This document shows positions 25,490-50,197 of a stretch of 57,160 nucleotides of DNA, piece by piece. Each line of letters opens with the position of its first letter. Positions within the stretch are counted from its first letter, which is position 1. This DNA comes from a virus. The stretch lies in the IMG/VR virus record IMGVR_UViG_3300037493_005727, positions 133,091-190,250 of that record, one strand, 5' to 3'. The position numbers and the translations under genes were made by a program. Under the pieces are notes generated by a model. That model worked only from the letters and a program-made list of their open reading frames with translations, had not been told where the DNA came from and did not search any database.

Positions 25490-25524
25490 GTGGTGGTGGT
25501 TCAAACGGCTTATACCCTACGCGG
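25490..25524 (-). promoter_or_regulatory. copy 8 of the repeated promoter-like intergenic motif (GGGTATAAG...TTTGAACC)
   Basis: In gene sense it reads TAGGGTATAAGCCGTTTGAACC, matching the core of the motifs at 48.6 kb and 45.7 kb. Confidence 0.4.
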
Positions 25525-25566
25525 TAGGAGTTTTCCGAGGCACCCTTCACGTGGTACCTTGAGCGC

Positions 25567-30776: not shown

Positions 30777-30790
30777 GTGCTGGGTATACC

Positions 30791-36068: not shown

Positions 36069-36071
36069 CTT

Positions 36072-36829: not shown

Positions 36830-36907
36830 GACACCTCAAGTTTAGGCCAGAGGCTAAAAATGAGCTGGGCATACTCGCCGTTGCTCTTCTCTTCTTCTTA
36901 TACCGCA

Positions 36908-36978
36908 CTGGGGCACGTGGACTCGAACCACGATTCTCAGAGTCAAAGTCTGATGTCCTGCCATTGGACGATGCCCCA
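36908..36978 (-). tRNA. tRNA-Gln (anticodon UUG)
   Basis: Cloverleaf: acceptor TGGGGCA/TGCCCCA with U1-A72, anticodon arm TCAGA-CTTTGAC-TCTGA and T loop TTCGAGT. Confidence 0.7.
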
Positions 36979-37060: not shown

Positions 37061-37064
37061 CTTG

Positions 37065-37137
<73 letters not shown>

Positions 37138-37186: not shown

Positions 37187-37241
37187 TAGGCGCATGCAGC
37201 GGGGGAGGGGGGAAAACCGCTGCGGCGCCCTTCTTTTGAGA

Positions 37242-37505
37242 CTAGTACTGGCTCTCATCTCCTGGACGAAGAATCGTGATGATCTCCTTCGTGTTCTTGT
37301 CGTACGCCACGCGGACCAGAATGTCATGAATCATCAGCTCGAACAAGGTAACACGGAGCGACTGTTTGCGAATGGGTTTCGCACGCCCCTGTTGGATGTC
37401 CAGCACGGCCTGCCGAAGCGTTTCGTCTCCTACTGGAATTCCAAACCGCTCGACCATGCGGCGCTTAGCGTGCTTTCGCTCGGCCGCTGCTTTTCCTCTG
37501 GGCAT
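37242..37505 (-). CDS. hypothetical basic protein (87 aa)
   Basis: ORF. Confidence 0.5.
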   Translation of the reverse strand: MPRGKAAAERKHAKRRMVERFGIPVGDETLRQAVLDIQQGRAKPIRKQSLRVTLFELMIHDILVRVAYDKNTKEIITILRPGDESQY

Positions 37506-37508
37506 GGG

Positions 37509-37661
37509 TCACCGATGTTTCCCGCTCGTCCGTAGCATCTGGATGAGCATCCCCGCCGCGGAGATGACGGGTGGGGACGTCAGTGCCTGAACTACGGCGT
37601 CGATTGTCTCGTTGCAGACAACCTTCTTCGGCGCCTTCTTCCTCTTCTTTTTCGCTGCCAT
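37509..37661 (-). CDS. small Lys-rich protein (50 aa)
   Basis: The ATG at 37661 has an AAGGAG RBS. Track ORF 37509..37694 was trimmed. Confidence 0.4.
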   Translation of the reverse strand: MAAKKKRKKAPKKVVCNETIDAVVQALTSPPVISAAGMLIQMLRTSGKHR

Positions 37662-37685
37662 GTGTAGCTCCTTTGTGAGCGTTTG

Positions 37686-37724
37686 GGTGCTCACCTCTTA
37701 TACCCATAAAGTGATCAAAAAAAG
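37686..37724 (-). promoter_or_regulatory. degenerate copy 9 of the promoter-like motif (CTTTTTTTGATCAC...GGGTATAAGAGG)
   Basis: It shares the GGGTATNAG core and the upstream GATC/T-run with copies 4 to 6. Confidence 0.3.
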
Positions 37725-37757
37725 AAAGCCACCGCCTGTACAAGCGCGGTGGCTTTT
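37725..37757. terminator. bidirectional terminator: 11-bp stem AAAGCCACCGC with loop CTGTACAAGC, flanked by A- and T-runs
   Basis: Direct reading of the sequence. The loop is nearly identical to that of the terminator at 38977-39010. Confidence 0.55.
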
Positions 37758-37775
37758 TCTTTCTTCGACCCTTCT

Positions 37776-38057
37776 TTACTGCGTAAAGGCCGAAGCGCCC
37801 TTCTGCGCGTCGTACTGCATCAGCTTGGTTTCGAGCTCTCGCACGACGGTCGCCCAGTCTTCCGAGGTGTCACCCTCGGCGAGATAGGTCTTGGCGATGT
37901 GCAGGTGGCCCTCGAGCTCATCCCGAAGGTACGTCGGGCTCTTCTGAAGCTCGGCACACTCAGGGGTCTTGCAGCCTTCGTTGTACGGCCGCCCTTGAAA
38001 GCAGCGCGGGCAGATCTTGTAGACCATCACGGGGGGCACCTCGATCGACAGGGTCAT
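37776..38057 (-). CDS. small zinc-finger protein (93 aa)
   Basis: Track ORF 37776..38099 trimmed to the ATG at 38057. Motif: CPRCFQG...GCKTPEC. Confidence 0.45.
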   Translation of the reverse strand: MTLSIEVPPVMVYKICPRCFQGRPYNEGCKTPECAELQKSPTYLRDELEGHLHIAKTYLAEGDTSEDWATVVRELETKLMQYDAQKGASAFTQ

Positions 38058-38087
38058 GGTGAGTCCTTTCTTGGGCGGGAAGTACAA

Positions 38088-38128
38088 TCTTTGGCTCAAG
38101 GACTCATACCCGAATTCTAGCCCTTTTA
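38088..38128 (-). promoter_or_regulatory. copy 1 of the promoter-like motif (...GGGTATGAGTCCTTGAGCCAAAGAT)
   Basis: About 30 nt upstream of the ATG at 38057. It is preceded (in gene sense) by a GC hairpin plus T-run. Confidence 0.4.
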
Positions 38129-38190
38129 ATGAAAAGACCCCCGCCTACCCGGAGGTAGACGAGGGTCGTTTCTACCTCGGTTCTACGAGG

Positions 38191-38922
38191 TCAGCTCGCC
38201 TGGACGTTGAGCAGGGCCACGAAAGACAGAGCGCCGTTGGGAACAGAGGTGGCGGTCCATGCGTCAGCCACCGGGTCCACCGTCACCGCCTCGGCCAGAC
38301 CACCCACGAACATCAGGCCGGTGCTGTTGGCCACGTTGTACGCCACGCCGATCTTGTCACCGGTTCCAATCGAGCACCCGGCCGCAGCGACGCCGATGGC
38401 CGCCTTGGTGATGGAGGTGACCGTCTTGAAGATCTTGGTGCCGTAGACGGTCGAGTTCGCCACCGCCGCGATGACCTCGGTCTGGGCCTTGTCGAACTGG
38501 TCCGTGCCCACCACGGTGATGGAGCCGCCGTCGTAGGTCGCCGCAGCGACCGCGCTCAGGTTGCGAGGCGTGACGGGGTTGGTGATGGGGCCGGGGAACA
38601 GATTCGCAGCGGTCGCCAGCACGGAAGCGTGCACGGCGGTCGCTGACTTGGCTGCCGGAACCACCGCGGGAACCAGGAGAGCCTGGGGAACACCGCTCAT
38701 CAGCTCGAGCTCGTCGGTCACCGCCGGGTCCTGCGAGAGAACCCACGAGATGTACCCCTTGGCCTTCAACGACTCCAGCTGCGGAGTGCTGCTGGACAGC
38801 TGCCCGCCGGTCAGCGAGACCGTGGTGCCTGTGGTGGGGATGTTGAACGACTTGCCGTAGCCGTCGGCGTTGCCAACGGCGATGTCAGAACCTGCGGTGT
38901 TGGTGAAGACGAGACGAGGCAT
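38191..38922 (-). CDS. beta-rich Ala/Thr/Val/Gly protein (243 aa), structural-like composition inside the accessory block
   Basis: The ATG at 38922 has an AGGAG RBS. Track ORF 38191..38985 was trimmed. Confidence 0.55.
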   Translation of the reverse strand: MPRLVFTNTAGSDIAVGNADGYGKSFNIPTTGTTVSLTGGQLSSSTPQLESLKAKGYISWVLSQDPAVTDELELMSGVPQALLVPAVVPAAKSATAVHASVLATAANLFPGPITNPVTPRNLSAVAAATYDGGSITVVGTDQFDKAQTEVIAAVANSTVYGTKIFKTVTSITKAAIGVAAAGCSIGTGDKIGVAYNVANSTGLMFVGGLAEAVTVDPVADAWTATSVPNGALSFVALLNVQAS

Positions 38923-38976
38923 GGGCTGCTCCTGAAAAGGTTTGTGGTCGACCCCCTCAGTATAGGCCACTCGGCT

Positions 38977-39010
38977 AAAAAACAACCCCCGCCTGTACGA
39001 GCGCGGGGGG
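38977..39010 (-). terminator. rho-independent terminator: stem AACCCCCGC with loop CTGTACGAGC and a T-run on the bottom strand
   Basis: Hairpin and complementary A-run immediately downstream of gene 39027..39248. Confidence 0.55.
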
Positions 39011-39026
39011 TTCTTTGAGATCTCCC

Positions 39027-39248
39027 TTACTCGTACTCCGTCACCTTGACCCGTGGAGGCGGCGGAACTTCGATCCGCTTGACCGCCTTCATGATGACGA
39101 AAGCTTCCTCGTACTTGAGAGCCATCTCTTTTGCCACCCGCTCAGCGTGCTCCAAGGTCTGAAACTGGACCTTGGATGGTTTCTCTGAGTCCGGGTTCCA
39201 AATGATCCAGAATGACTTGGTTCCAGGCCACGTCTTTTTAGCTGTCAT
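39027..39248 (-). CDS. hypothetical protein (73 aa)
   Basis: Track ORF 39027..39284 trimmed to an internal ATG. Confidence 0.4.
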   Translation of the reverse strand: MTAKKTWPGTKSFWIIWNPDSEKPSKVQFQTLEHAERVAKEMALKYEEAFVIMKAVKRIEVPPPPRVKVTEYE

Positions 39249-39420
39249 ACTCATCCTTTGGAAATGGTTCGATCTCATCGACATCGACCCAGGTGTCTAG
39301 CTTGTGCTCTTCGTTCACTACTCGTGCGGTCTTCCCCATGGCGCAGGCGACGACCAAGGGAATCTTCTTCTTCTTCACCTTTACGAAGTAAACCACCTGG
39401 CCGTCAAAGACCCAGGTCAT
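39238..39420 (-). CDS. hypothetical protein (60 aa)
   Basis: ORF. Confidence 0.35.
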   Translation of the reverse strand: MTWVFDGQVVYFVKVKKKKIPLVVACAMGKTARVVNEEHKLDTWVDVDEIEPFPKDEYDS

Positions 39421-39910
39421 TTTTGATCGCCTCCCTCAGTCGCGGCAGACTGTGCTTGATGAAGGCCCGCGCCTGTTCGGAGTACTTGTAGCAAGTGAGT
39501 TCATGAGTGTCGGGCAGCTCGGTCTGATTCGCCCAACCCCAGAACTGGTACTCGTCACAGAGCCCCTCATGGAGATCGGGGAGCTCCCACTCGTCTCGAG
39601 CCTCTTCCGCGGTGAGTTGCTTCTCCCGCCGCATGCCGAGAATCGTCTCTCTCACGGCTTGCAGCGTTGCTTCGTCGTCGTACTCCTGCTTCGGGGCGAT
39701 CTTCCGAAGGATGTAGTCGTCCTCGCACTGAATGATGAAGTGGCGGAACGTCGTTTCTTCGGGCAGCCCCCGCTGGTTCCAGCGGTAGCTCCAATCCCCG
39801 TAGTCACTGAGCGCGGCGAAGCAGCCCGTCTCGTCGAGGAAGATGATGGCCCACCCCTCCCCCTTGACGCTGGGGAAGGAGTACCGCCACGTCTTGACAT
39901 CAGAGGGCAT
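39404..39910 (-). CDS. hypothetical protein (168 aa)
   Basis: The ATG at 39910 has a GAGGTG RBS. Track ORF 39404..39982 was trimmed. Confidence 0.5.
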   Translation of the reverse strand: MPSDVKTWRYSFPSVKGEGWAIIFLDETGCFAALSDYGDWSYRWNQRGLPEETTFRHFIIQCEDDYILRKIAPKQEYDDEATLQAVRETILGMRREKQLTAEEARDEWELPDLHEGLCDEYQFWGWANQTELPDTHELTCYKYSEQARAFIKHSLPRLREAIKNDLGL

Positions 39911-40190
39911 CGTGCACCTCCTCGAGGTGCCCCTGCAGATCCCACAGCTGCTCCTTGGCGCGCTCGATGGCTTGCGCGGCATAGTAGAGTTGCTGCTTCT
40001 TGTACAAGTCAGGATCGAACGTCTCGATGAGCTCGATGACGATGAACTTCGCCAGCGTGTCCCCGGACCCGTTCTTCTTCAGCTTCCCCGCCTTCGTGTA
40101 GTAGTTGCTGAGGTAGCCGTCGTCGTACGCCTCATTCGCCAGATCCAGCAACTCCTTCTGGGTGAAGCTTTTTCCCCTCTTCGTCTTCAT
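39900..40190 (-). CDS. hypothetical acidic protein (96 aa)
   Basis: The ATG at 40190 has a GGGAGGA RBS. The track ORF N-terminus is out-of-frame shadow of the upstream gene. Confidence 0.45.
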   Translation of the reverse strand: MKTKRGKSFTQKELLDLANEAYDDGYLSNYYTKAGKLKKNGSGDTLAKFIVIELIETFDPDLYKKQQLYYAAQAIERAKEQLWDLQGHLEEVHDAL

Positions 40191-40566
40191 ACCAATCCTC
40201 CCCGCAGAGTGAACAGATGATGTGATACTTGTCTTTCTCCGGAGCGAGCCTGCGCTCCAAGAGGCCCATTCCTTCGTCGTTGACGTGTTCGCAGCAGGAA
40301 GCCGCCACGTCGTGGATCTTTCCGATCTCCTGCTCGTTGTCGTCTGCTTTCTTGTGAAGGCGCCCCACCAGCTGACGATCCAGCGTTTCCAATCGACCCA
40401 AGAGGGCCTCTCGCTCCAAAGACGTAATCTCCGCTGGGAACTTCGGCTCGAAGCGGGAAGCCTGGAACAGGCACTTCCGCTCTTTGCCGGCGTGCTCTCG
40501 GCGCCACTGCCCACAATTTCTGCACGGGAAGTAGCGTTCCGGGGTCAGCTTCGGAGGCTTCGCCAT
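40132..40566 (-). CDS. C2HC zinc-motif family protein with a second Cys cluster (144 aa)
   Basis: N-terminal CRNCGQWRREHAGKERKCLFQ and C-terminal HIICSLCGEDW. Confidence 0.5.
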   Translation of the reverse strand: MAKPPKLTPERYFPCRNCGQWRREHAGKERKCLFQASRFEPKFPAEITSLEREALLGRLETLDRQLVGRLHKKADDNEQEIGKIHDVAASCCEHVNDEGMGLLERRLAPEKDKYHIICSLCGEDWYEDEEGKKLHPEGVAGSGE

Positions 40567-40730
40567 CGCCACCCCCAGCCGCAAGAGAAGTGGAGGCGAA
40601 GGCGGCCCCAGCCGAAGTTGATGGAAAAGTACTCAAGCTCTGGCGAGTAGTAGAAGTTGAAGCCTTGGCGGGGGAAACCTTGATCCTTCGCCTCCCGCGA
40701 CCACCACTGGGAGCCGTAGTAGATGTTCAC
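40545..40730 (-). CDS. small Trp/Tyr/Phe-rich protein (61 aa), GTG start coupled to the upstream stop (GTGA)
   Basis: The in-frame tail of track ORF 40545..41060 looks natural from VNIYYGSQWW... The GTG overlaps the TGA of 40727..41161. Confidence 0.35.
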   Translation of the reverse strand: MNIYYGSQWWSREAKDQGFPRQGFNFYYSPELEYFSINFGWGRLRLHFSCGWGWRWRSLRS

Positions 40731-41161
40731 CGCTCGAGAGCTCCCATCCCCCCGCTCATCTGGATGAGCGCCAGGTCCGTCGACACGCCGAAGTGCTGCC
40801 CCACGAACTGCGCGTGGAGCAGGACCTCTGGGACCATGATGTGAAGCCCGGGACAGGAGTACTGCTCCGCGTGCTTGCAATGGCCTTCTCTGCTGACCTG
40901 GATGCACTCCAAGGCGGTCTTGGGGTCCCAGTTCATACTGATGAGGCTCTGCATGTTCTTCTGAGTGATGCGGAAACGCTTCGCGTCTTTCTTCTTCTTG
41001 TCGATTCGGCGTTTCGGGGTCAGCAGGTACAGCGGACGCCAGCGCGTGGCGAAGGCCCACAGCTGCTCCGGGGTGGTGACTTCTGAGAGCTCCTTGACGT
41101 ACGTCTCCCGCACGTGGTCTTCCGTGTACGTCGGTTGAACCGGCAGATCTTTGAGGCTCAT
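40727..41161 (-). CDS. hypothetical protein (144 aa)
   Basis: The ORF has natural composition. Confidence 0.55.
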   Translation of the reverse strand: MSLKDLPVQPTYTEDHVRETYVKELSEVTTPEQLWAFATRWRPLYLLTPKRRIDKKKKDAKRFRITQKNMQSLISMNWDPKTALECIQVSREGHCKHAEQYSCPGLHIMVPEVLLHAQFVGQHFGVSTDLALIQMSGGMGALER

Positions 41162-41225
41162 TGTTTCTCCTTGAAAAAAGAAAGCGGGACCCTGAGATTC
41201 CAGGGCCCCGCGGTACCTCTGACGG

Positions 41226-41762
41226 TTACGGCTTACCGTCTGAGTCCCCCGAAGGCAGCATGAGCATCGCCTCGAACGCGGGCGAGATCAGCAGCTTGTT
41301 CAGGGGCTTCACCTGCTTGTCGTGCCAGGCCCGATGCGCCGCGAGTTCCGGCGTGTTCGGGACCTTCTTCATGTCGATCAGGTTGTCAGCCTGAATGACG
41401 GCGCTCCGGGCGCTATCGAGCTTCTTGACGAACTTCGGCAGGGAGCTCACCAGAACGTCCGCGTCATCCACGGAAGCCCGGATACCGGCGCCCGCTTCGA
41501 CGATGAGGTCCCGGTTGTACTTGGCGCGGAGGACCTTGCGGATCGTTCCGTACTTCGAACGCAGCTTGTCCACTTCGTCCGACTTCAGACGAGGCGTGTG
41601 CCCGTACCCCATGATCGCCTTGACGGCGATGTTCGGGGCCACGAACACCTCAGGACGCTTCTGGCAGAGCCAGTGGAGGAAGTCCGCGCAGCGCGTGCTC
41701 AGCGGAGCGGCGTCATCCTTGACGAACGTCGACAGATCGACCACTTTGGAATTACGGGGCAT
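41226..41762 (-). CDS. hypothetical protein (178 aa)
   Basis: The ATG at 41762 has an AAGGAAAAGCC RBS. Confidence 0.5.
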   Translation of the reverse strand: MPRNSKVVDLSTFVKDDAAPLSTRCADFLHWLCQKRPEVFVAPNIAVKAIMGYGHTPRLKSDEVDKLRSKYGTIRKVLRAKYNRDLIVEAGAGIRASVDDADVLVSSLPKFVKKLDSARSAVIQADNLIDMKKVPNTPELAAHRAWHDKQVKPLNKLLISPAFEAMLMLPSGDSDGKP

Positions 41763-41794
41763 GGCTTTTCCTTTTTTTTTGAGGCGCATCTGGG

Positions 41795-42694
41795 TTAGGG
41801 TTTCTGGGACTGCGAGAGGGACGTCTGATCAGGGGACAAGAGCGCCTGCACGCAGGCGTTCGCTTCTACGACCTTGAGATACTCCTCTGCCAACGCAGGA
41901 TTGTTCTGCGTTCGATCTGGGTGGTAAAGCCTGGCGAGACGACGAAACTGCGTCTTGATGTTCGCGCGAACCTTCGGCGTGAACTCCCCGTTCTTCGGAG
42001 GGTCCACGTTGAGGACACGAAGAGCCGCATAGAGCCTCTTCGTTCTCGAAGCGTCCGAAAGCTTCTCCGGATCTGCCACTCGAGCGCGTGCGATGATGCT
42101 GCGCCACGTTTCAGTCAACGCCCGAAGATCCGCGCGACCAACGGCGCGGATGTTATAGGCGGCGAATTCTGGGACGCCGACCAGCATCTGGTCGAACAAG
42201 CGTTCCACGGCTGCGAAGAACTCAGTGGACTGCCCTCTGGCAGACAAAGGTTCTTCTGGCTCCTTTTCCGGTGTCCTTGCCCTCGTTTTGCTCGTAGGAG
42301 CATTTTCGGAGGGGCGCTTCTTGTCCAGCGTTCCCGCCAGATACGCCTGGATAGTCGCTTCTACTTTCTCGGGCGTTGGTTGCTGTTTGTCGTCCCGCGA
42401 CCGAGCGATGATGATTCCGCTCGACCGGAGCGTAACCTTCTTAGCTTCGAGCGCCGCCCAGATAGGCTCCGCCGCAGCGCCCACCCGGTGCAGGATCGCC
42501 CGATCCATGATGTGTCGGGGTCCTGCGTTCTCAGAGCCGGGGGGCAACTGAGCGGTGATCCAGTAGCCGCAGTAGTTTTTGCGGGCTCCTGGAGTGTCTG
42601 GAGTGAACGCGCGCATCTCGTGTTCAACCTGAGCGCGCTCCTTTTCACTGGTACTGGCAACCCACGCCAGAACCAGCTCTGCGATCGATCTCAT
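41795..42694 (-). CDS. J-domain (DnaJ-like) protein (299 aa)
   Basis: Its C-terminus IKTQFRRLARLYHPDRTQNNPALAEEYLKVVEANA matches the J-domain helix II/III with the HPD motif. Confidence 0.55.
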   Translation of the reverse strand: MRSIAELVLAWVASTSEKERAQVEHEMRAFTPDTPGARKNYCGYWITAQLPPGSENAGPRHIMDRAILHRVGAAAEPIWAALEAKKVTLRSSGIIIARSRDDKQQPTPEKVEATIQAYLAGTLDKKRPSENAPTSKTRARTPEKEPEEPLSARGQSTEFFAAVERLFDQMLVGVPEFAAYNIRAVGRADLRALTETWRSIIARARVADPEKLSDASRTKRLYAALRVLNVDPPKNGEFTPKVRANIKTQFRRLARLYHPDRTQNNPALAEEYLKVVEANACVQALLSPDQTSLSQSQKP

Positions 42695-43599
42695 AGCAGT
42701 TTCCTTAGAATGGTGAGAACTTCGTTGAGCTGCTGTTCGAGAGCTTCGAACCGAGCGTCAATGTGTTCGGCGTTGACCACCGTCAGTACGACCGGAATCT
42801 CTTTGGGGAGAACCGGTACCTTGATGACTTCTTGCTGCGACGGCGGAGCTTGAGGCGCTGGAACGGGTCGTTTGATCAACCCGTCCAGACGGTCCCGGAT
42901 GTACACCATGTTCTCCGCGGTGGCATGCATCAACTTCATCTTCGCCATCTCGATGTCGACCAGAGTCTCCTCCGGGGTAGGCGGCGGAGGGTCGACGGCC
43001 TTTTCTGGCTCAGGCGGTGGGACAGGCTCCGGCTCCGGCGTTGGGGCCGGCTCCGGCGGCGGAGGCTGGTAGAGCTTGATCTCTACCGCTTTAACCTCCG
43101 GCCTCGGTGCTGGGCGAGGCGGAGCGAACATGTTCAGAGCAGCCCGCGCCGAAGAAAGGTCCCCTGGAAAGGACTTGGACTTGATGACGGGCCTCTCCGA
43201 GACCGCTTGTACGAGGGACTCCAGTTTCATGAGGGATTCCATCGCTCTCGGGGTAGCGGGTTGAGCCGCTTTCTGCTTCCGAAGCTCCTCGATGTGTGCC
43301 TGCTGATCGCGCCACTCCTCTGCTTCGGCGGGCCAGAGTACATTGGCCACCGTCATGGGGGTCATGAGCATGTCCAGCGCTTTTTCGTGGTCTCGAACAA
43401 TCAGCTTCTTGCTCGGCGCATCCACGCCAAAGATGCCCGAGTCCAAGAGGATCTTGCGGTAGGGAGACATCGACCCGACGGGCATCGTATCCCCGAAGAT
43501 CTCGGGGGCGCTCAGCTTGTCCCCTCGAATCACTCGAGGAATGGTTTGTTTCAACTGGTTCCACATCACTTCTGCGATACGATCAAAATTGGGTCGCAT
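42691..43599 (-). CDS. hypothetical protein with a Pro-rich central linker (302 aa)
   Basis: The ATG at 43599 has an AAGGAATG RBS. Track ORF 42691..43716 was trimmed. Motif copy 2 lies about 40 nt upstream. Confidence 0.5.
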   Translation of the reverse strand: MRPNFDRIAEVMWNQLKQTIPRVIRGDKLSAPEIFGDTMPVGSMSPYRKILLDSGIFGVDAPSKKLIVRDHEKALDMLMTPMTVANVLWPAEAEEWRDQQAHIEELRKQKAAQPATPRAMESLMKLESLVQAVSERPVIKSKSFPGDLSSARAALNMFAPPRPAPRPEVKAVEIKLYQPPPPEPAPTPEPEPVPPPEPEKAVDPPPPTPEETLVDIEMAKMKLMHATAENMVYIRDRLDGLIKRPVPAPQAPPSQQEVIKVPVLPKEIPVVLTVVNAEHIDARFEALEQQLNEVLTILRKLL

Positions 43600-43636
43600 G
43601 ACATTCCTTTCGCCCCTGCGGGCTTTGAGACGGGTT

Positions 43637-43670
43637 AAAGGCTGCATCTCTGATACCAAAAAAAGGGCTG
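43637..43670 (-). promoter_or_regulatory. copy 2 of the promoter-like motif (TTTTTTTGGTATCAGAGATGCAGCC)
   Basis: It has the GGTATCAG core after a T-run. It is preceded in gene sense by the hairpin GGCCCCCC-GATGATCT-GGGGGGCC (43687-43710). Confidence 0.35.
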
Positions 43671-43725
43671 TCACTACTGGTAGCAAGGCCCCCCGATGAT
43701 CTGGGGGGCCTGCCAACCGAGAGGC

Positions 43726-43986
43726 TCAGCTGAGAATGCGATCGTACGTCGCAATGCCTCCCTTGATCCGCGGCCCGCGAGCGTACACGCACAACTCCAT
43801 CGTGAACCGGAGGCCATACCGCAGAGCCTCTGCGACGGCCATGCGGCAAGCCGCCTCCCCGGTATCGGCGTGCTTCGCGAATGTCCAGGACGTGGACCCT
43901 TCGACGGGCTCGCTCAGATGCCCTGAGACGAAGAACAGCTGCTTCTGGATTTCCAGGGTTTTCGTGACCGTTTTCTTGGTTGCCAT
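43726..43986 (-). CDS. hypothetical protein (86 aa)
   Basis: Track ORF 43726..44115 trimmed to the internal ATG. Confidence 0.4.
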   Translation of the reverse strand: MATKKTVTKTLEIQKQLFFVSGHLSEPVEGSTSWTFAKHADTGEAACRMAVAEALRYGLRFTMELCVYARGPRIKGGIATYDRILS

Positions 43987-44006
43987 TTTTGTTCCCCTCC
44001 TGCGGT

Positions 44007-44489
44007 TTACAGCTTCACCTTCGTGACCAACTCCACTTCCGGGCTGTCCCCGAGCTGCCAGGAAACGCCACGGATACCCTGAGCCTCCAGGCGCGGCTGG
44101 ATCTCCCGAGCCCACCAGGCAGCGAGAAGAGGATTCGAGGACCGAGGAGCGTCCTCCTCCGAATGAACAGGACCCGGCCTCCCAGACATCTTCTTGGAAG
44201 GCTTCTTCGAGCTGGAGTCGAGCCGCTCCTTCGACCAGCGCTCCATCTTCTTGCCGAGCGGGAGCTGAATCTTCTCAGCCTCCGCGAAGGTCTTCACCTC
44301 GACCCCCTGGGAAACCGCGAAGGCCATTTTCTTGATGGTCCCGGGCTTGATGCCGATCGGCCCTGGGATCTCCTTCAGGAGGTTCGTTTGGAGCTCCTCG
44401 AACGGGAGGTGCGCTCCCCCGTTGAGAAGGGACTTCTCGAGGTACTGAATTCGCTTGTTCTGTAACGCTTGCTGCCAGGTGATAGACAT
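44007..44489 (-). CDS. hypothetical protein (160 aa)
   Basis: The ATG at 44489 has an AGGAAGGAAG RBS. The upstream part of the track ORF is Cys/Arg-rich shadow. Confidence 0.5.
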   Translation of the reverse strand: MSITWQQALQNKRIQYLEKSLLNGGAHLPFEELQTNLLKEIPGPIGIKPGTIKKMAFAVSQGVEVKTFAEAEKIQLPLGKKMERWSKERLDSSSKKPSKKMSGRPGPVHSEEDAPRSSNPLLAAWWAREIQPRLEAQGIRGVSWQLGDSPEVELVTKVKL

Positions 44490-44547
44490 GACTCTTCCTT
44501 CCTGCCCGAAGGCAGTTTGTTGGTGGTGATCTACTTCGTTGGTTGCT

Positions 44548-45000
44548 TCAGTGAGACAGGCCAGAACTGCGCTCTTGCTGATCGAGAGCGCCACCCTGAT
44601 ACAGCCGGAACGGCGGGACGGGAGCCCTGAACCATCCCTTGGTCGGTTCGAACCGAAGGAAGTCCAGCAGCACGCGCCCGTAAGACCGCAGGGCCACTCG
44701 CCCGTAGGTTTCGTCGAATCCGTTGGGACCGTTGATGTCCCGGTACAGCGCCTTGTACAGCCCTTCACGCGCCCCGGTGGCCATGATCGCCGCCCGGATC
44801 TGGTTGTTGTACATCGCGTGATTCTTGTGCAGCCACGTCTCCAACTCCCACGGCTGGGAGCAGGCGCAATGGCCCGGGATGGCCACGCCCATCTGGACCA
44901 GGTGGTGCAGCAGGTCGGTCCACTTCTTCACAGGCACCTTCGCCTGAAGCGCCGCAGTGAACTCGGCGATCCAGCCCAACTCCTCTGGGGTGAAGAGCAT
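44548..45000 (-). CDS. hypothetical protein (150 aa)
   Basis: The ATG lies 29 nt downstream of motif copy 3. Confidence 0.5.
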   Translation of the reverse strand: MLFTPEELGWIAEFTAALQAKVPVKKWTDLLHHLVQMGVAIPGHCACSQPWELETWLHKNHAMYNNQIRAAIMATGAREGLYKALYRDINGPNGFDETYGRVALRSYGRVLLDFLRFEPTKGWFRAPVPPFRLYQGGALDQQERSSGLSH

Positions 45001-45028
45001 CAGTGTCTCCTTCGAGCCGGGTAAGAAA

Positions 45029-45064
45029 GCTTTGGCTCAAGTCCTGATACCAAAAAACAGCCCC
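45029..45064 (-). promoter_or_regulatory. copy 3 of the promoter-like motif (TTTTTTGGTATCAGGACTTGAGCCAAAGC)
   Basis: It is followed to the right by the nested hairpin GCCCC-AA-CCTAC-GAAG-GTAGG-A-GGGGGC with flanking T/A runs. Confidence 0.4.
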
Positions 45065-45102
45065 AACCTACGAAGGTAGGAGGGGGCTTTTCGGCGGGCC
45101 GA

Positions 45103-45627
45103 TTACGAGGGCAACTGGTACCGGGACGTTTCAGGGTCCCAGAGCAGCAGCTCGTGATCCCACCAGGGCATCATCCCCTTGGTGCCCTCGTCGAGGGCGG
45201 CGGCCATGCGGTCCACCCTGACCTGGGGGACCCCGTGGGTGTTGCGCGGACCGGCGATGGCCGGGTCGATGCGGAGGGTCATGATGACCACCTCCGCCCC
45301 GAACGCCTGCCCGACCGCCACGTAGGGGGCGATCTCAGCCACCGACGTGGACGTGTTGTCCACCACGATGACCGGCTCGGGGACGGGGTTACGGACCCCG
45401 GAGATCTTGGCCAGCTCGCGCTGGGCATACCCGTCCTGCAGGTGCTCGATGACCGAGAGCAGGCACGCCCCGTGAGCCGCCGGGAGCTTGGCGGGGTTGA
45501 AGACGTACTTCTCCCCTTCCATCATCCCGTCGTCCGCCGACGCGATGAGGTCAGCCTTGGGGAGCTCCTTCCGGGCGAAGGTGCTCTTCCCGCTGCCGGG
45601 GATGCCTCGAAGAATGATAAGGCGCAT
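45103..45627 (-). CDS. polynucleotide-kinase-like P-loop kinase (T4 Pnk kinase-domain-like, 174 aa)
   Basis: MRLIILRGIPGSGKSTFARKE plus a downstream VVDNTSTS segment. It parallels the T4 Pnk kinase domain (IILTIGCPGSGKSTWARE...ISDTNL). No phosphatase domain is present. Confidence 0.5.
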   Translation of the reverse strand: MRLIILRGIPGSGKSTFARKELPKADLIASADDGMMEGEKYVFNPAKLPAAHGACLLSVIEHLQDGYAQRELAKISGVRNPVPEPVIVVDNTSTSVAEIAPYVAVGQAFGAEVVIMTLRIDPAIAGPRNTHGVPQVRVDRMAAALDEGTKGMMPWWDHELLLWDPETSRYQLPS

Positions 45628-45711
45628 GGGTGGTCCTTTCTCGGCTTTCACCGAAGTGAGACGCAGTGCCAATAACTAGCCACCTCCGGCTCCCATGCAG
45701 GAGCTTGCGTC

Positions 45712-45746
45712 GGGTTCAAGTACTAATACCCTAAAAATGATCAGTT
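45712..45746 (-). promoter_or_regulatory. copy 4 of the promoter-like motif (AACTGATCATTTTTAGGGTATTAGTACTTGAACCC)
   Basis: Near-identical to copies 5 and 6. Confidence 0.4.
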
Positions 45747-45752
45747 TTAGGG

Positions 45753-46124
45753 TTAGGCCGCCCCGACGTGTCCGAGGTACTCCTCGCACTTCTTCAATTC
45801 TCTCTCTTCCTCCGGGGTGAGCTCACCCTTCTGTTTCTTCTCTAGAAACAAGCGGTATCTCCTTTCAACGCTGACGTAGAGGTCCATCTTGAAGATCGCT
45901 GCGTCTGCCTCGTTGGCGGTCTTCCCAAGCAGCCGCTTCTCCAGCCCGTACAGAAGGTATGGTCTCATCCGCTCCGTTTGCATGACGGTCAGTTCGAAGA
46001 CTTCATCCCCGTACCCCTCGAGAGTCACGTACACCGTGCTGAGGTCACGCTCATCCGCAACGATGTTGACGGTCTTGACACAAGCGTCTGGAGCAACGGC
46101 CGTTGCTGTTCTATGCTCTGCCAT
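45753..46124 (-). CDS. hypothetical protein (123 aa)
   Basis: Strong AGGAAGGAG RBS. Confidence 0.5.
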   Translation of the reverse strand: MAEHRTATAVAPDACVKTVNIVADERDLSTVYVTLEGYGDEVFELTVMQTERMRPYLLYGLEKRLLGKTANEADAAIFKMDLYVSVERRYRLFLEKKQKGELTPEEERELKKCEEYLGHVGAA

Positions 46125-46151
46125 TCAGCGTCTCCTTCCTGGTGAGAGTTC

Positions 46152-46997
46152 ATGTTCTACCGCCTCGGACAGCATCATGCTCTCGCCGCATTAGGCCTCG
46201 AAAAGCTCGCGGCGATTCTACGCCCAGGGATTGGGGGTCCCGCGGCGGAGATTCAACGGCACGTCGACACCGGTAACTTCGCTGAAGCTTCCAGGCTGGC
46301 TCGGCAACCAGGGGCTTTCGTGGATCAGCAGCACCTCAGCCCTTTTGACCTCGGACACCACATCCGGCATCTCGGGGCGGGGGTCGAAGGCAGCGCGGAA
46401 CTGATGGTCCACCCCCAGCACGGCGTCAACGCCACGAAGATCTACGACCCTCGGGGGATCACTAAGCGTCGTGGGGTTGAACTCAAAGGGGAGGCGTTCA
46501 ACCGTATCCAGAACTTCGAACCCAGGTCTACCAGAGATCGTGAGCTACAGCAGCATCTCGTACGCCTCCTTGGGCAGACAACGCCTCCCAGGCCGACAGA
46601 CGCCGGGATCCCGACGGTTCTCCCAGCCCACCACTTCGAATTCGTGCCTGGGCATCACGGGGATCATGTTCTACCCGCTGACCAGGAAGCCCGTTTCACG
46701 ACGCTGCAGGGGCAAATGCGCGACTTCATCCCCAGGGCTACCGGCGGTATGACGGTCCACGACACCAACAAGCGGGACAACTGGATCATCGGTCCTGATG
46801 GCCGCCCCACTCTGGTCGATTTCTCCCTTACCAGCGCTCCGGGCGCTTCTTGGGGGGACATCCAGCAGAAGGCGCTCCCCGGGGCGGACCCTAAAACAAT
46901 CTTCGCCCGCCACAGGGAAGGGTTTGATTCCGCCGAACCGTCCGACGACCCACGCTACGCCGAACCCCCGCCGGTGAGGGCGGGGGCCCGACGTTAG
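46152..46997 (+). CDS. protein-kinase-like protein (atypical or eukaryotic-like kinase fold candidate, 281 aa), rightward gene inside the leftward block
   Basis: It is the only long ORF over this 850-bp stretch and its codon third positions are GC-biased like the rest of the genome. VHDTNKRDNWII resembles the HRDLKPEN catalytic loop, and TLVDFS resembles DFG. Confidence 0.45.
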   Translation: MFYRLGQHHALAALGLEKLAAILRPGIGGPAAEIQRHVDTGNFAEASRLARQPGAFVDQQHLSPFDLGHHIRHLGAGVEGSAELMVHPQHGVNATKIYDPRGITKRRGVELKGEAFNRIQNFEPRSTRDRELQQHLVRLLGQTTPPRPTDAGIPTVLPAHHFEFVPGHHGDHVLPADQEARFTTLQGQMRDFIPRATGGMTVHDTNKRDNWIIGPDGRPTLVDFSLTSAPGASWGDIQQKALPGADPKTIFARHREGFDSAEPSDDPRYAEPPPVRAGARR

Positions 46998-47398
46998 CTT
47001 TCCAGCGTTGAAACCCAGCTGCGCAGCTTTTCTGGGGTCAGCTCGTTGAAGGGGACACGGGTGACATCGAACCCCGCGGCCGCCAGGATCGTCACCATCT
47101 TCATGGCTCCGGGGGTGTTCATGGAGTGCACGAGAACGGGGACTCCTTGATCGAGCTTCTGCGCAACGGCCTTTGCCACGACGCCCCCGTTGGTGAAGGC
47201 GCCGTCAGCCGTGACCCCCTGCTTGTACAGGTCGTAGTCCAACAGGACCCCGTGGTAGGTGTCCGCCTCGTCCTTCTTGAGGATGGCCAACGCAGCGCCG
47301 CCTGAACGCGCCCAGACCACCCGCACCTCTTTGGGGAGGTGCGCCGTGAAGAAGGCATGCCGGTCAGAGTCATCCTCGACCAGCAGGAGGCGGATCAT
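46994..47398 (-). CDS. stand-alone response-regulator receiver (REC/CheY-like) domain protein (134 aa)
   Basis: MIRLLLVEDD...VLLDYDLYK...VLVHSMNTPG...K pattern. It has a GGAGAGGAGGAAGC RBS. Confidence 0.5.
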   Translation of the reverse strand: MIRLLLVEDDSDRHAFFTAHLPKEVRVVWARSGGAALAILKKDEADTYHGVLLDYDLYKQGVTADGAFTNGGVVAKAVAQKLDQGVPVLVHSMNTPGAMKMVTILAAAGFDVTRVPFNELTPEKLRSWVSTLES

Positions 47399-47727
47399 GC
47401 TTCCTCCTCTCCAAAGTCGATCTCGAGCATGATCTTCTGTTCGATCCGCTTTTGGGACCACCCGGCCTTGGCGAGGTGGCAGACAGCCAACTCCAGCGCC
47501 ATCTGGAACTTCCAGCGCCCCAGCGAGGTGTCTTCCGCCTGCCCAAGCTTATTGGCGTAGCGGAGGATGGCGACCCCCGATACCAGGTCCTGCTCCTGGC
47601 GGTCCGGCGGTCCAGCGAGGGCCCTGGCTCGCCCAAAGGCCACCTTGTAGGCCTCCGGTCCAACCACGAACAGCTCCAGCCACTGGCCGTAGAGAAACCC
47701 GGCCAACCAACCTAGCGCGTAGCGCAT
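47395..47727 (-). CDS. hypothetical protein (110 aa)
   Basis: The ATG lies 30 nt downstream of motif copy 5. Its stop overlaps the REC start (ATGA). Confidence 0.5.
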   Translation of the reverse strand: MRYALGWLAGFLYGQWLELFVVGPEAYKVAFGRARALAGPPDRQEQDLVSGVAILRYANKLGQAEDTSLGRWKFQMALELAVCHLAKAGWSQKRIEQKIMLEIDFGEEEA

Positions 47728-47756
47728 AGTTCATCCTCTCTGAGCCGTAGGTACGA

Positions 47757-47796
47757 TCTTTGGCTCAAGGTCTAATACCCCTAAAAAAGATCACTT
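47757..47796 (-). promoter_or_regulatory. copy 5 of the promoter-like motif (AAGTGATCTTTTTTAGGGGTATTAGACCTTGAGCCAAAGA)
   Basis: It is preceded in gene sense by the hairpin GGGGGCCCCCC-AAAA-GGGGGTCCCC (47810-47836). Confidence 0.45.
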
Positions 47797-47851
47797 TACT
47801 GATGGGTAGCGGGGACCCCCTTTTGGGGGGCCCCCGGCGAACCAGGGTGAC

Positions 47852-48064
47852 CTACCGCTTGGCCTTCTTCTTGGCCTTCTTCTTGGACCTGGCGGGCTTC
47901 CCGAAAAGGGACACGACGAAGCGCTCGTCCGCGGCCTTCTCCTCCTCCGAAGGGTCGAACCAGCCCCACGAATCCATCAACCGCACGCCACCCACCGCGC
48001 CCACCAGCGCGCCGCCAGCCGAAACAGCGGCCACCGCGGCGCTCTTAAGAATCGTTCCGATCAT
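47852..48064 (-). CDS. small membrane protein with a Lys-rich C-terminal tail (70 aa)
   Basis: The ATG at 48064 has a GAAAGGA RBS. It has a hydrophobic helix (ILKSAAVAAVSAGGALVGAVGGV) and then KKKAKKKAKR. Confidence 0.45.
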   Translation of the reverse strand: MIGTILKSAAVAAVSAGGALVGAVGGVRLMDSWGWFDPSEEEKAADERFVVSLFGKPARSKKKAKKKAKR

Positions 48065-48236
48065 GTTTTTGTCCTTTCTCGGCCTGGACCGAGGGTTCAA
48101 CGGGTTGGACTTCTTTGACACTGAGGATCCGCACGACCTCGCCACCCGGCGGAGTCAGCGGTTCCTCAGATCCCATCACTACGGTGGTCAGACCCGCCGC
48201 GTTGCGGACGGCCCAGCCAATGATTGGTCTTTTCAT
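48045..48236 (-). CDS. hypothetical protein (63 aa)
   Basis: The ORF has a GGGAG RBS. Confidence 0.4.
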   Translation of the reverse strand: MKRPIIGWAVRNAAGLTTVVMGSEEPLTPPGGEVVRILSVKEVQPVEPSVQAEKGQKHDRNDS

Positions 48237-48247
48237 AGGCTCCCAGG

Positions 48248-48553
48248 TTACGGGGAAACGCGGATCGCGCTCTTGCCCGTCAGAACGTTCTTCAACTTCG
48301 CGCCGGGGGCGTTGATGGTCCAGGGGTAGACCCCCTCACCGTGGCCGCGGCTCGTCACCGAGACCTTGTTCCCGTCCTCGTCGCGGAAGTACAAGACGTT
48401 GCCCTGGGCCATCCGCGTCGCCTTCTTCTCCAGGGCCTTGAAGCTCGCCTTGGTACCGCCTTGGGCGATCCACAGCGCCAAGGCGTCGTCGATCCAGGTA
48501 CCGCCGGTACGGCGGAGGCGGGACCAGCCAACCATCTCTAAGAGGTCGAACAT
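48248..48553 (-). CDS. hypothetical protein (101 aa)
   Basis: The ATG at 48553 lies about 35 nt downstream of motif copy 6. Track ORF 48248..48619 was trimmed. Confidence 0.45.
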   Translation of the reverse strand: MFDLLEMVGWSRLRRTGGTWIDDALALWIAQGGTKASFKALEKKATRMAQGNVLYFRDEDGNKVSVTSRGHGEGVYPWTINAPGAKLKNVLTGKSAIRVSP

Positions 48554-48585
48554 TGGTGTATCTTTCTCCCTGCTTCCAGGGTGTA

Positions 48586-48623
48586 GGGGTTCAAAGTCTA
48601 ATACCCTAAAAAAGATCACTTTT
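48586..48623 (-). promoter_or_regulatory. copy 6 of the promoter-like motif (AAGTGATCTTTTTTAGGGTATTAGACTTTGAACCCC)
   Basis: Near-identical to copy 5. It is preceded in gene sense by the hairpin around 48628-48655. Confidence 0.45.
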
Positions 48624-48666
48624 ATGACCCCCAGGGACCCCCTTTCGGGGGCCCCCGGAACCGCCT

Positions 48667-49449
48667 TTACTTGGTAAAGTGGCGAACGGTGCCTTTGAGG
48701 CGAATGGGAGCGACCACCCCCCAGCCCTTCTTGAGCAGTTCATTGGAGTAGACGGGGCTGCTCACGCACGAAATGGTGACGTGGTGCAGCTGCCCCAGAC
48801 TCGGGGCGTTGTAGGGCTCAGGCAGCGTGACCTTTACCGCCTGCCCCTTGTCGTCGGAGGCCTCCCCGACGACCTCGAACTCCACGACCTTCTCGAGGAG
48901 TGGCTCAAAAGCCTTGATCAGTTCAGGCCCAGGCTTGAACGCCAAGGTCACGTGATGCCCAAAGACCTTCGGGTGGATGGGCGGGAAGGCCTTGAGCAGG
49001 GCGTCCTTGGAAGGCTCGTCCAAGAAGATCGCCGTGTAGACGGGCTTCGGCTGAACTGGGATTCTGAGCAGGGCCAGCGCCTTCTCTGGCACCCCGTCGC
49101 AGCTGGGGTGGCAGTCGTGCTTCTCCAGGGCGGCAATGGCCGCCATGATTCGTTCGTCCGAAGCTCTCCAGCCAGCTCGGGAGATCCGGTCATTCTCCTC
49201 GGCCTTGGTCACCTGCTCCGCGAAATACTTCACCTTCTCATCGGCCAACTGCTGGCCCAGTTGCTCGTCTTCGAGCTCCTTGATGCGCTTGTGCAAGCGC
49301 GCCTTGGTCTCCATGAAGATCGTTTCATGGTCTCGGATGAGCTCCGCCTGGTCGCGGATGGTCTGTTTCATCTCCCGCTCCCGCATCTTCAGCACGATGA
49401 CGTCACCCATCGCTTGTCCAAGCCCGATAGCAGGATCTCCTTCACTCAT
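48667..49449 (-). CDS. 2H phosphoesterase superfamily protein (LigT/CPDase-like) with an N-terminal coiled-coil extension (260 aa)
   Basis: It has two H-x-T-x motifs, HHVTLAF and LHHVTIS, in the C-terminal approximately 130 aa. The N-terminal approximately 130 aa are Glu/Lys/Arg-rich helical. Confidence 0.55.
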   Translation of the reverse strand: MSEGDPAIGLGQAMGDVIVLKMREREMKQTIRDQAELIRDHETIFMETKARLHKRIKELEDEQLGQQLADEKVKYFAEQVTKAEENDRISRAGWRASDERIMAAIAALEKHDCHPSCDGVPEKALALLRIPVQPKPVYTAIFLDEPSKDALLKAFPPIHPKVFGHHVTLAFKPGPELIKAFEPLLEKVVEFEVVGEASDDKGQAVKVTLPEPYNAPSLGQLHHVTISCVSSPVYSNELLKKGWGVVAPIRLKGTVRHFTK

Positions 49450-49642
49450 TTTTACGCATCTCCGCGTAGCGGGCGGTCGCCAGCCACTTCATGTAGTGGG
49501 ACTTCTCCAACGTGTCGATGATCTGAAGCAGTTCTTGGGCGAAGGGGTGGCCTACCCGGATAACGCCCACCGTCTTGTTGAGGAGGTTGATGGCCTGAGA
49601 CAGGTACTTCTCCGCGTCTTCGTCTAGGTGGTTTAGGGGCAT
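49442..49642 (-). CDS. hypothetical protein (66 aa), first gene of the leftward block
   Basis: Track ORF 49442..49927 trimmed to the ATG at 49642. It overlaps the downstream start by 8 nt. Confidence 0.45.
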   Translation of the reverse strand: MPLNHLDEDAEKYLSQAINLLNKTVGVIRVGHPFAQELLQIIDTLEKSHYMKWLATARYAEMRKNE

Positions 49643-49644
49643 TA

Positions 49645-49670
49645 CTCCTGATACCCTAATAGAGTCCTGG
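49645..49670 (-). promoter_or_regulatory. copy 7 (partial) of the promoter-like motif (CTATTAGGGTATCAGGAG) in the divergent region between the leftward and rightward blocks
   Basis: It has the GGTATCAG core but lacks the TTGAGCC half. The ATG lies only 8 nt downstream. Confidence 0.3.
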
Positions 49671-49702
49671 CTTTCGGTCGAAAAAACAGGTAGGCTACGT
49701 CC

Positions 49703-49957
49703 ATGCCCGACATCCAACCCGGCCTGGTTCACACCGTTGACCCGTCCCGCTGTGGCAACTGTAAGCACCCTCGAGCGGCTCACGTTGAGGGCATCTGCTT
49801 GTTTGACTCCACGACCTTCCGTGAGGAGAAAGCAGAGGATCACATGGACTGCGTCTGTGAGGTCGTCACCGAAACGGCGCCACCGGAGAGGGTAAGGGCT
49901 CCTACGCCACAAAGGGTCCTCACCCACTACTATCCACCCATGGGCGTCATTGTCTGA
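49703..49957 (+). CDS. C2HC zinc-motif family protein (84 aa)
   Basis: Motif CGNCKHPRAAHVEGICLFD. Confidence 0.5.
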   Translation: MPDIQPGLVHTVDPSRCGNCKHPRAAHVEGICLFDSTTFREEKAEDHMDCVCEVVTETAPPERVRAPTPQRVLTHYYPPMGVIV

Positions 49958-50183
49958 CCGTGCCTACAAGATCCGCATGCCGGTGATGCAGCAGGTCTGC
50001 CTGAACTGTCACAGGGACCGCGTCCAACATGTAGATGGAAAGTGCTTGTTTGAGGCCTCGGAGTTCAAGCCTGGCGGGGTCAACGTGACCAAGAAAACGG
50101 TCACGGCCCCGGTAGTCTGTGGCCGCTGCGGCGGGAGCAAGAAGGACCCCGAGCACGAAGGTACTTGCGGCGCCTGTTCCTGA
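49950..50183 (+). CDS. C2HC zinc-motif family protein with a second C-terminal CxxC...CGAC cluster (77 aa; TTG start or ATG at 49977)
   Basis: Motifs CLNCHRDRVQHVDGKCLFE and CGRCGGSKKDPEHEGTCGACS. Confidence 0.5.
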   Translation: MSDRAYKIRMPVMQQVCLNCHRDRVQHVDGKCLFEASEFKPGGVNVTKKTVTAPVVCGRCGGSKKDPEHEGTCGACS

Positions 50184-50197
50184 GCTAAGCTAGGAAC

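Follow-up and report, generated by a model that had tools for sequence, protein, structure and literature searches.

The 57,160-nucleotide (nt) stretch of viral DNA analysed here (the window; positions 133,091 to 190,250 of IMG/VR record IMGVR_UViG_3300037493_005727) carries ten intergenic copies of an oriented octamer, GG-TATNAG, all of them on the minus strand and preceding leftward genes. We propose that the octamer marks a family of promoters with an undescribed consensus, read by an RNA polymerase (RNAP) that the phage itself encodes, in a poorly known group of large phages. From the comparisons presented below, the probability of this reading is put at roughly 0.65. Rightward structural genes occupy 1–24.3 kb, 25.9–29.3 kb and 49.7 kb to the end of the window. 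The region from 29.3 to 49.6 kb consists of leftward genes, mostly small and of no known function, with five tRNAs at 36–37 kb, and a leftward island of three genes (24.3–25.5 kb; 25472–24334) is located within the rightward structural block.

Statistics and placement of the octamer

The pattern GGTATNAG has 12 exact matches in the window, where 1.95 would be expected, a count that 100 shuffles never reached. When all 8-mers of the window were ranked without bias, TAGGGTAT came first and GGTATTAG second (minus strand). Non-genic sequence makes up 8.7% of the window and holds ten of the 12 matches; all ten are on the minus strand, upstream of minus-strand genes and in their sense orientation, as an earlier note on this DNA had described for nine of them. 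The remaining two (1750, plus strand; 56240, minus strand) are intragenic and without the flanking consensus; they are about the number predicted by chance. Within the window, copies are not equally frequent inside genes or in the wrong orientation, the outcome that the note had named as damaging to a promoter family. The statistics, strand and position of the motif are directly established, and the GGTATNAG family is real and non-random.

All nine copies reported earlier were found, with cores at 25509, 37697, 38103, 43650, 45044, 45723, 47772, 48598 and 49648 (minus strand), but that count was one short; a tenth lies at 36897–36904 and is kept in a related contig, L030. The reported consensus of about 35 bp holds for six copies. 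A weight matrix trained on two relatives only (L021 and L023) finds the extended consensus in 38103, 43650, 45044, 45723, 47772 and 48598, which score 18.8–36.1 against a shuffle maximum of 14.3. For 25509, 37697 and 49648 the consensus shrinks essentially to the octamer; these three are credible by location, and 49648 also by a copy at the matching place in L023. Outside the octamer, window copies are only 12–27/35 identical pairwise, the best ungapped pair being 45723 and 48598 (27/35). The fourth to sixth copies of the earlier count, said to be about 30/35 identical, measure 17–22/35. The distance from motif to start codon, given before as 8–45 nt, is 5–50 nt, or 95 nt for 45723 under the Logan gene call. 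GGGTAT occurs in 7/9 of the reported copies. G closes the octamer in all window copies and in those of L021, L023, L030, Salmonella phage Arash and Vibrio phage D69. GGTATNAG itself served to pick the window copies and most of those in relatives, and the Arash and D69 motifs came from unbiased k-mer ranking.

Evidence for promoter function

It is very probable that the elements are promoters. The phage-specific promoter family suggested in the earlier note draws support from strand and position, from the heads of divergent units, from tRNA genes, from an evolutionary footprint and from a core shared across phages. Both leftward units that diverge from rightward genes are headed by a copy: 49648, in a divergent gap of 60 nt, and 25509, which heads the reverse-oriented island in the structural block, where a copy had indeed been placed. 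These two point to a transcription start, because no sense transcript from upstream can reach a divergent head. Copies also precede tRNA genes in L030 and in Arash (12 nt before tRNA-Asn), some of them without an intervening open reading frame (ORF), and so suggest a signal for transcription, not translation.

The octamer is followed on its 3′ side by three variable positions and then by TTGA, about 6 nt after the motif. ATG lies 5–6 nt past the octamer, a spacing of the leaderless type, at 49648, at CCTATACT (27887) and at GGTATACC (30783). From the leaderless spacings and from the points where hairpins of the 5′ untranslated region (UTR) begin, we infer a -10-like placement of the octamer and, with it, the start site. 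This geometry fits a -10 element. Transcription would begin 5–7 nt downstream, at the G or A within the conserved TTGA or, for 49648, at the A of ATG. The transcript from 49648 would be leaderless or nearly so, because only 5 nt separate the core from ATG 49642.

The footprint is seen in L023, which is syntenic with 44.9–55.4 kb of the window. The presumed early genes there have 38–60% amino acid (aa) identity, and the element has 84–90% nucleotide identity. The element of 48598 is 84% identical to L023:9724-9804, and the neighbouring genes align at the protein level only. L030 is syntenic with 45.1–33.9 kb and has cassettes at orthologous places; that of 45044 corresponds to L030:902-940 (90% identical).

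Conservation in relatives

The window has a GC content of 60% and is identical in sequence to parts of two Logan contigs from run SRR12667201. One of these, L056, extends to the left of the window (window coordinate = L056 - 19511). A protein encoded just to the left of the window is also found on a 190,250-bp JGI contig; the phage is therefore taken to be roughly 190 kb long, with the window making up about 30% of it. Very few window proteins were recognised with PHROGs and Pfam. A near-identity nucleotide search of cultured phages with 37–50 kb gave no match, nor did a 518-aa structural protein, and a search for relatives with a 302-aa early protein found none. The full 22-nt motif had no match in IMG/VR. 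A loose pattern, GGTATNAGNNCTTGAGCC, returned 30 loci, of which only L023 and L030 are genuine, the others being single matches within coding sequence. Rfam identified only the five tRNAs in the window and had no match for the motif element; a literature search for the literal octamers returned primer sequences only.

In Arash, GGTATAAG occurs 11 times on the minus strand of 16–66 kb (0.48 expected) and not at all on the plus strand, and k-mer ranking over 50 kb of the leftward gene array places GGTATAAGTA(A) at the top. Its copies stand 12–40 nt before annotated leftward genes. Leftward islands within the polymerase and structural block of Arash are also preceded by the motif, some as TTTTAGGGTATAAG. 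The recurrent intergenic motif of D69 is (G/T)(G/T/C)TATAAGTAAtat, given also as TATAAGTAA. The uncultured contig L021 (56% GC) carries nine copies within 7.4 kb, on one strand only, with a fixed gap of 7 nt from the motif to AGGAGG. The conservation of the core is directly observed: T-A-T-N-A-G, final G included, is kept across phages of Salmonella, of Vibrio and of GC-rich hosts. Since phages that share the polymerase described below differ in host and in GC content (44–61%), the motif is more likely recognised by phage-encoded machinery.

A phage-encoded RNA polymerase

The presence of polymerase genes is established directly. The 1604-aa protein encoded at L056:3713-8527 joins nearly all of the β subunit to the N-terminal half of β′ (Pfam Rpb2_6, 3e-49; Rpb1_2, 3e-16), with a best match to bacterial β at 3e-66. 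The protein aligns to β′ residues 154–550, the clamp-helix region included, and has an inserted InPase (pyrophosphatase-like) domain at residues 589–708. L056:10001-11800 encodes the C-terminal half of β′ (β′-C; 599 aa; Rpb1_5, 1e-18; 5e-35 to bacterial β′). Both genes are on the same Logan contig as part of the window, 8–16 kb to its left; a gene for an SNF2-family helicase is found near them. β′-C has more than 600 metagenome homologues, many on contigs of 176–196 kb; among cultured phages, the nearest are those of Vibrio phages D69, D181 and D148, at 35% identity, and of Salmonella phage Arash, at 33%.

The earlier statement that the window holds no gene for RNAP or a sigma factor agrees with Pfam analysis of its 85 proteins, which found no sigma or polymerase domain. 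Its comparison with promoters of phage-encoded polymerases or sigma factors was apt in that the phage does encode an RNAP, but the enzyme is multisubunit and of bacterial type, and within the group a sigma factor is documented only in Arash. A 1973-aa protein at the right end of the window was considered as a virion polymerase and rejected; it has no DxDxD, no Pfam or PDB match and a tail-fibre-like composition. We consider it likely, on sequence grounds, that the phage's own polymerase reads the GGTATNAG promoters.

Mass spectrometry of Arash virions detected β (with the most spectra of any protein), β′ and the sigma factor gp10, and its authors propose a role of the virion polymerase and sigma factor in early transcription; the word 'promoter' is absent from that paper (PMC10585845). 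In Arash, the virion sigma gene is preceded by a small gene, and a GGTATAAG copy (L057:11588; record 11588–11595, plus strand) is found immediately upstream of that small gene. The same placement is found in the uncultured relatives L075, L079-L084 and L087 at about 2676. The sigma gene may belong to the same regulon in Arash and those relatives. In D69, an Srd-like anti-sigma factor is annotated among the leftward small genes (L059; record 23371–23910), which would fit a shut-off of the host holoenzyme.

Cassette anatomy and individual copies

Read in the sense direction, a full cassette opens with the stop codon that closes the gene before it, followed by a GC-rich hairpin and a T-run, often with TTTTAG at its end. 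Next come GGTATNAG, three bases that vary and TTGA(G/A)CC, and then a second hairpin, a Shine-Dalgarno sequence and a start codon. Terminator-promoter modules had been described for most copies. A GC hairpin with a T-run nearby is present upstream of seven, but canonical terminators are found only at 37697, 38103 and 45044; at 43650, 45723, 47772 and 48598, about 20 nt or a second weak hairpin or palindrome lie between the GC hairpin and the T-run. The 5′ arm of the UTR hairpin begins at the G of TTGAGC, and the 3′ arm stops just before the Shine-Dalgarno sequence. Its arms vary among copies and orthologs (GAGCC/GGCTC, GAGC/GCTC, TGAGC/GCTCA, GAGT/ACTC, TTGAG/CTCAA) with pairing kept, and the loop is 4–30 nt long. 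With arms and loop length so variable, an RNA stem fits better than a protein-binding palindrome. The 5′ stem may serve mRNA stabilisation or translation control.

A palindrome of 20–26 bp, ACCCTAAAA-n-TGATCA-n-TTTTAGGGT, overlaps the upstream edge of some copies (45728–45753, 47780–47800 and 48605–48625; L023:9755-9785 and 10465-10495, at the L023 copies 9764 and 10474). Its centre is about 24 bp before the predicted start, with a GATC site inside. The palindrome may be an operator for a dimeric regulator.

The leftward array is headed by the copy at 49633..49667 (core GGTATCAG, 49648–49655), 5 nt upstream of ATG 49642; the 66-aa gene that starts there agrees with the Logan gene call, and the counterpart of the copy is at L023:8034. 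The next, 48583..48617 (core GGTATTAG, 48598–48605; score 34.2), has TTGA 3 nt downstream and lies 44 nt upstream of ATG 48553. The copy at 47757..47791 (core GGTATTAG, 47772–47779; score 29.3) is likewise 44 nt upstream of its start codon, ATG 47727, and its 5′ UTR hairpin GAGCC...GGCTC spans 47742–47766. Upstream of a gene resembling AAA_33 kinases, the element at 45708..45753 (core GGTATTAG, 45723–45730; score 36.1) overlaps a 26-bp palindrome, ACCCTAAAACTGATCATTTTTAGGGT (45728–45753). A full cassette is found at 45014..45087 (score 26.8); an intrinsic terminator (45052–45087) leads to the core GGTATCAG (45044–45051) and TTGA, then to the 5′ UTR hairpin (45014–45038), the Shine-Dalgarno sequence and ATG 45000. 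At 43635..43710 (core GGTATCAG, 43650–43657; score 18.8) the core is 50 nt upstream of ATG 43599, and a T7 run and a GC hairpin (43687–43710) stand before it.

The cassette at 38088..38167 (score 26.6) comprises a terminator (38131–38167), the core GGTATGAG (38103–38110) and TTGAGCC, 45 nt upstream of ATG 38057; its ortholog is at L030:5332. In the cassette at 37676..37754, the terminator (37717–37754) and the core GGTATAAG (37697–37704) are followed by the 5′ UTR hairpin TGAGC...GCTCA (37676–37693), the Shine-Dalgarno sequence and ATG 37661, and the unit runs on into tRNA-Thr, tRNA-Leu and tRNA-Gln. In the ortholog, L030:5742, the hairpin arms are altered to GAGT/ACTC. The tenth copy, at 36882..36916 (core GGTATAAG, 36897–36904), is 4 nt past tRNA-Gln and upstream of gene 36829–36146; its ortholog at L030:6459 stands after a terminator and 60 nt before tRNA-Thr and tRNA-Gln, with no intervening ORF. 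The last copy, 25494..25528 (core GGTATAAG, 25509–25516), heads the leftward island 25472–24334 and is 36 nt upstream of ATG 25472. All are on the minus strand.

Between cassettes, gene content has turned over, as a comparison of the window with L030 shows. About 3.4 kb (41161–44548; five genes and copy 43650) have no counterpart in L030, although the two are otherwise syntenic; L030 has another small gene there (L030:1401-1716), has no gene 36829–36146 and has a different tRNA order. A tRNA-like gene at 36072–36146 (plus strand) is given no amino acid by ARAGORN, which reports its anticodon as 'tt', and scores 52 bits as an Rfam tRNA; it is kept beside tRNA-Ile in the relative (L030:6679-6752) and may be a tRNA whose anticodon loop is unusual.

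Other promoter-like motifs in the window

A second motif, (C/G)CTATACY, has 7 matches in the window against 0.53 expected and is always on the sense strand. The sites are 3242, 5841, 9118, 18373, 27887 and 50718 (plus strand) and 38959 (minus strand), with others outside the window at L056:13684, 18431 and about 3697 and at L055:20166. The genes that follow them, at a distance of 6–60 nt, are structural genes, one leftward gene (38922) and the β/β′-N fusion gene, and the sites are kept at matching positions in L002-L004. The fusion gene has GCTATACT 7 nt before its ATG and shares its motif class with the structural genes. (C/G)CTATACY probably marks a second, possibly late, promoter class. The transcript at 27887 would be leaderless, because ATG follows the motif by 6 nt. 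The octamer GGTATACC (30783–30790, minus strand) is palindromic and joins the GG of one motif class to the TATACC of the other; it is 6 nt before ATG 30776, and at L056:3605-3612 it abuts the ATG of a leftward 243-aa gene.

The near-consensus sigma70 promoter noted earlier at 35541 is present (35541–35568, plus strand; TTGACA-16-TAATAT), upstream of ORF 35639–35932 and the rightward tRNAs. In its L030 counterpart the hexamers are kept (TTGACA, TAAGAT) and the spacer has diverged, so the site is probably functional and read by the host enzyme. This canonical site differs from the GGTATNAG family; host-type promoters of this phage therefore look different.

Discussion

In the mechanism we propose, the octamer GG-TATNAG would be the key determinant, placed like a -10 element. 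We likewise infer the reading polymerase, the timing of transcription and the role of the hairpins. The promoters would most likely be read by the bacterial-type multisubunit RNAP of the phage (β/β′-N plus β′-C), not by the host sigma70 holoenzyme. By analogy with Arash, the enzyme would probably work with a phage sigma-family specificity factor and be carried in the virion, so that right after infection it would probably transcribe the tRNA genes and the small leftward genes, which are presumed early. Within a cassette, the upstream hairpin and T-run would end the preceding unit and the promoter would restart transcription. A stem-loop would open the new transcript, reaching almost to the Shine-Dalgarno sequence, and would probably stabilise the mRNA.

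According to a review, every jumbo phage that encodes an RNAP has, ahead of its early operons, an AT-rich conserved motif about 10 nt long and centred near -10, and in all cases tested it proved to be an early promoter read by the virion polymerase (PMC7598289). The phage of the window matches this rule, drawn from phages of the phiKZ/AR9 type, in that it has its own multisubunit RNAP and the octamer, T-rich upstream and without a -35 element, precedes 10 leftward units of small, presumed early genes. The enzyme differs in being a β/β′-N fusion plus β′-C rather than four to five diverged fragments, and its similarity to bacterial β/β′ is far greater (E 1e-35 to 1e-66). The consensus GGTATNAG also differs, and only one set of polymerase genes has been seen so far. 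According to Iyer et al., the phiKZ-like group has no sigma factor, and in surveys jumbo phages that encode RNAP have no sigma factors and those that encode sigma factors have no polymerases (PMC7824862). Unlike the phiKZ-like group, the relative Arash carries a sigma70-family virion protein. Arash resembles the phage of the window in its polymerase layout (β-like gp206, β′-C-like gp216, then structural genes) and in its long leftward arrays of small genes and tRNAs preceded by the same GGTATAAG, but β′-C is 33% identical and the downstream consensus is GGTATAAGTAA-GT(A/G)TA in place of N3-TTGAGCC.

Late promoters of phage T4, TATAAATA, are read by gp55/gp33, and their 8-bp -10-like block suffices without a -35 element. 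A single such block and the phage sigma-family factor proposed here are points of likeness; the T4 system uses the host core enzyme on late genes, whereas here a phage core enzyme would act on genes that look early. A T7-like promoter is continuous over about 23 bp (-17 to +6), unlike the octamer and TTGA with three variable positions between them, and no single-subunit RNAP domain was found among the 85 window proteins or in flanking genes.

The most serious alternative, in our view unlikely, is that the promoters are read by host RNAP through the housekeeping sigma factor (as extended -10 promoters), through an alternative sigma factor or after retargeting by a small protein of the phage, whose own polymerase would in that case serve another class, for example CCTATACY. 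TATNAG does agree with TATAAT at T-12, A-11, T-10 and A-8, the spacing to the predicted start (a discriminator of 5–7 nt before a purine) fits sigma-type open complexes, and no phage sigma factor has been found for this lineage. The G at -14, present here, belongs to extended -10 elements. GGGTAT, in 7/9 copies, resembles the -10 element of SigB/SigF-type factors and also counts for the host. However, as pointed out in the earlier note, an invariant G stands at -7, where T is essential for housekeeping sigma factors, and no -35 element is found at 16–18 bp; the G at -13 is also invariant and there is no TG at -15/-14. A scan of 35000–50500 with the sigma70 consensus gave two sites, neither at a motif copy, and the aligned regions upstream of the copies contain only T-runs and hairpins. 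We take GGTATAAG without a -35 element to be a poor sigma70 site in enterobacteria. Host recognition also sits poorly with the presence of the same core in phages of Salmonella, Vibrio and GC-rich hosts and with the canonical look of the conserved host-type promoter of the window.

Three specific assignments were tried and rejected. A SigB/SigF promoter has the form GTTT-N12-17-GGGTAT, and no GTTT-type -35 element is present at the required distance. For sigma54 (GG...TTGC), GG and TTG stand, by eye, one base too far apart, and there is no GC. TAGGGT, considered as the true -10 element, is found in only about half of the copies.

It is improbable that the octamer is not a promoter and acts instead as an oriented regulator site (stoperator-like) or as an RNA-level element for processing or translation within longer transcripts. 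Such a role would suit an asymmetric, intergenic motif on one strand that is often near the Shine-Dalgarno sequence (at a fixed 7-nt gap in L021), that is followed by hairpins and that in a subset of copies overlaps an operator-like palindrome of 20–26 bp. It would not explain copies that head divergent units beyond the reach of an upstream sense transcript, or copies before tRNA genes, which have neither a Shine-Dalgarno sequence nor an ORF. Most copies directly follow terminators and so would seldom be transcribed from upstream, and Rfam has no match. The start-associated sequences of Cluster K mycobacteriophages lie at a constant distance, a few bases, before the start codon of protein-coding genes; the distances here vary from 5 to 95 nt, and copies also precede tRNA genes.

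PeSL elements of the T4-type phages RB49 and phi1 are intergenic repeats of an AT-rich tract, promoter, GC-rich stem-loop or terminator, Shine-Dalgarno sequence and start codon, concentrated before small ORFans, with a few inside the virion module (PMC2839356). The same order of parts before ORFans is found here, but PeSL promoters match the -35 and -10 elements of Escherichia coli sigma70 and are read by the host, whereas these copies have no -35 element and a G at -7. That the copies resemble each other mainly as a mobile or recombining PeSL-like cassette, with a core of no sequence-specific function, is very improbable. Repeated terminator-promoter-Shine-Dalgarno cassettes do flank small ORFans with differing gene content between them (the 3.4 kb at 41161–44548 missing in L030), but identity outside the octamer is only 12–27/35, the octamer alone is kept across phages with about 33% identical proteins, which implies selection on the core, and the 3.4-kb indel, examined as a PeSL-style recombination junction, is not bounded by two cassettes.

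Several points weigh against a promoter family read by the phage polymerase. Promoter function and start sites are deduced from sequence both in this phage and in its relatives, and three of the copies (25509, 37697 and 49648) have essentially the octamer alone in common. L021 has no detectable protein similarity to the window and is placed in the group by motif and size only. The genes downstream are presumed early from their size, their orientation and their having no known function. Virion packaging is extended from Arash alone, whose β′-C is just 33% identical. In about 80 kb of this phage, neither a sigma-like nor any other specificity factor came to light; tblastn with Arash gp10 and the L019 sigma factor (the L019 gene adjoins a homologue of the 518-aa protein) and profiles built from 2 and from 120 sigma homologues found none. 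A pattern scan of IMG/VR located the sigma family in 27 other large contigs and in none of the contigs of the closest lineage. The two motif classes may reflect one enzyme with two specificity factors or a split between the phage and host enzymes.

A more specific proposal is tentative, at a little under even odds. In it, GG-TATNAG would be the -10 element of an uncharacterised system in which a bacterial-type RNAP (β/β′-N plus β′-C) is packaged in the virion along with a phage sigma70-family factor, whose -10 specificity would end in G and not in T. This system would be common to a widespread group of phages of about 160–200 kb, from Arash and D69 to hundreds of uncultured GC-rich contigs, and distinct from the sigma-less polymerases of phiKZ and AR9.

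If the phage-polymerase reading is correct, the octamer would provide the promoter code of a large, mostly uncultured group of phages of about 190 kb with a bacterial-like RNAP, of which Arash is a cultured member. A sigma-family factor with a G-specific -7 pocket would be conceivable, and a compact orthogonal pair of promoter and polymerase possible. The motif would enable early transcription units to be annotated in such genomes.

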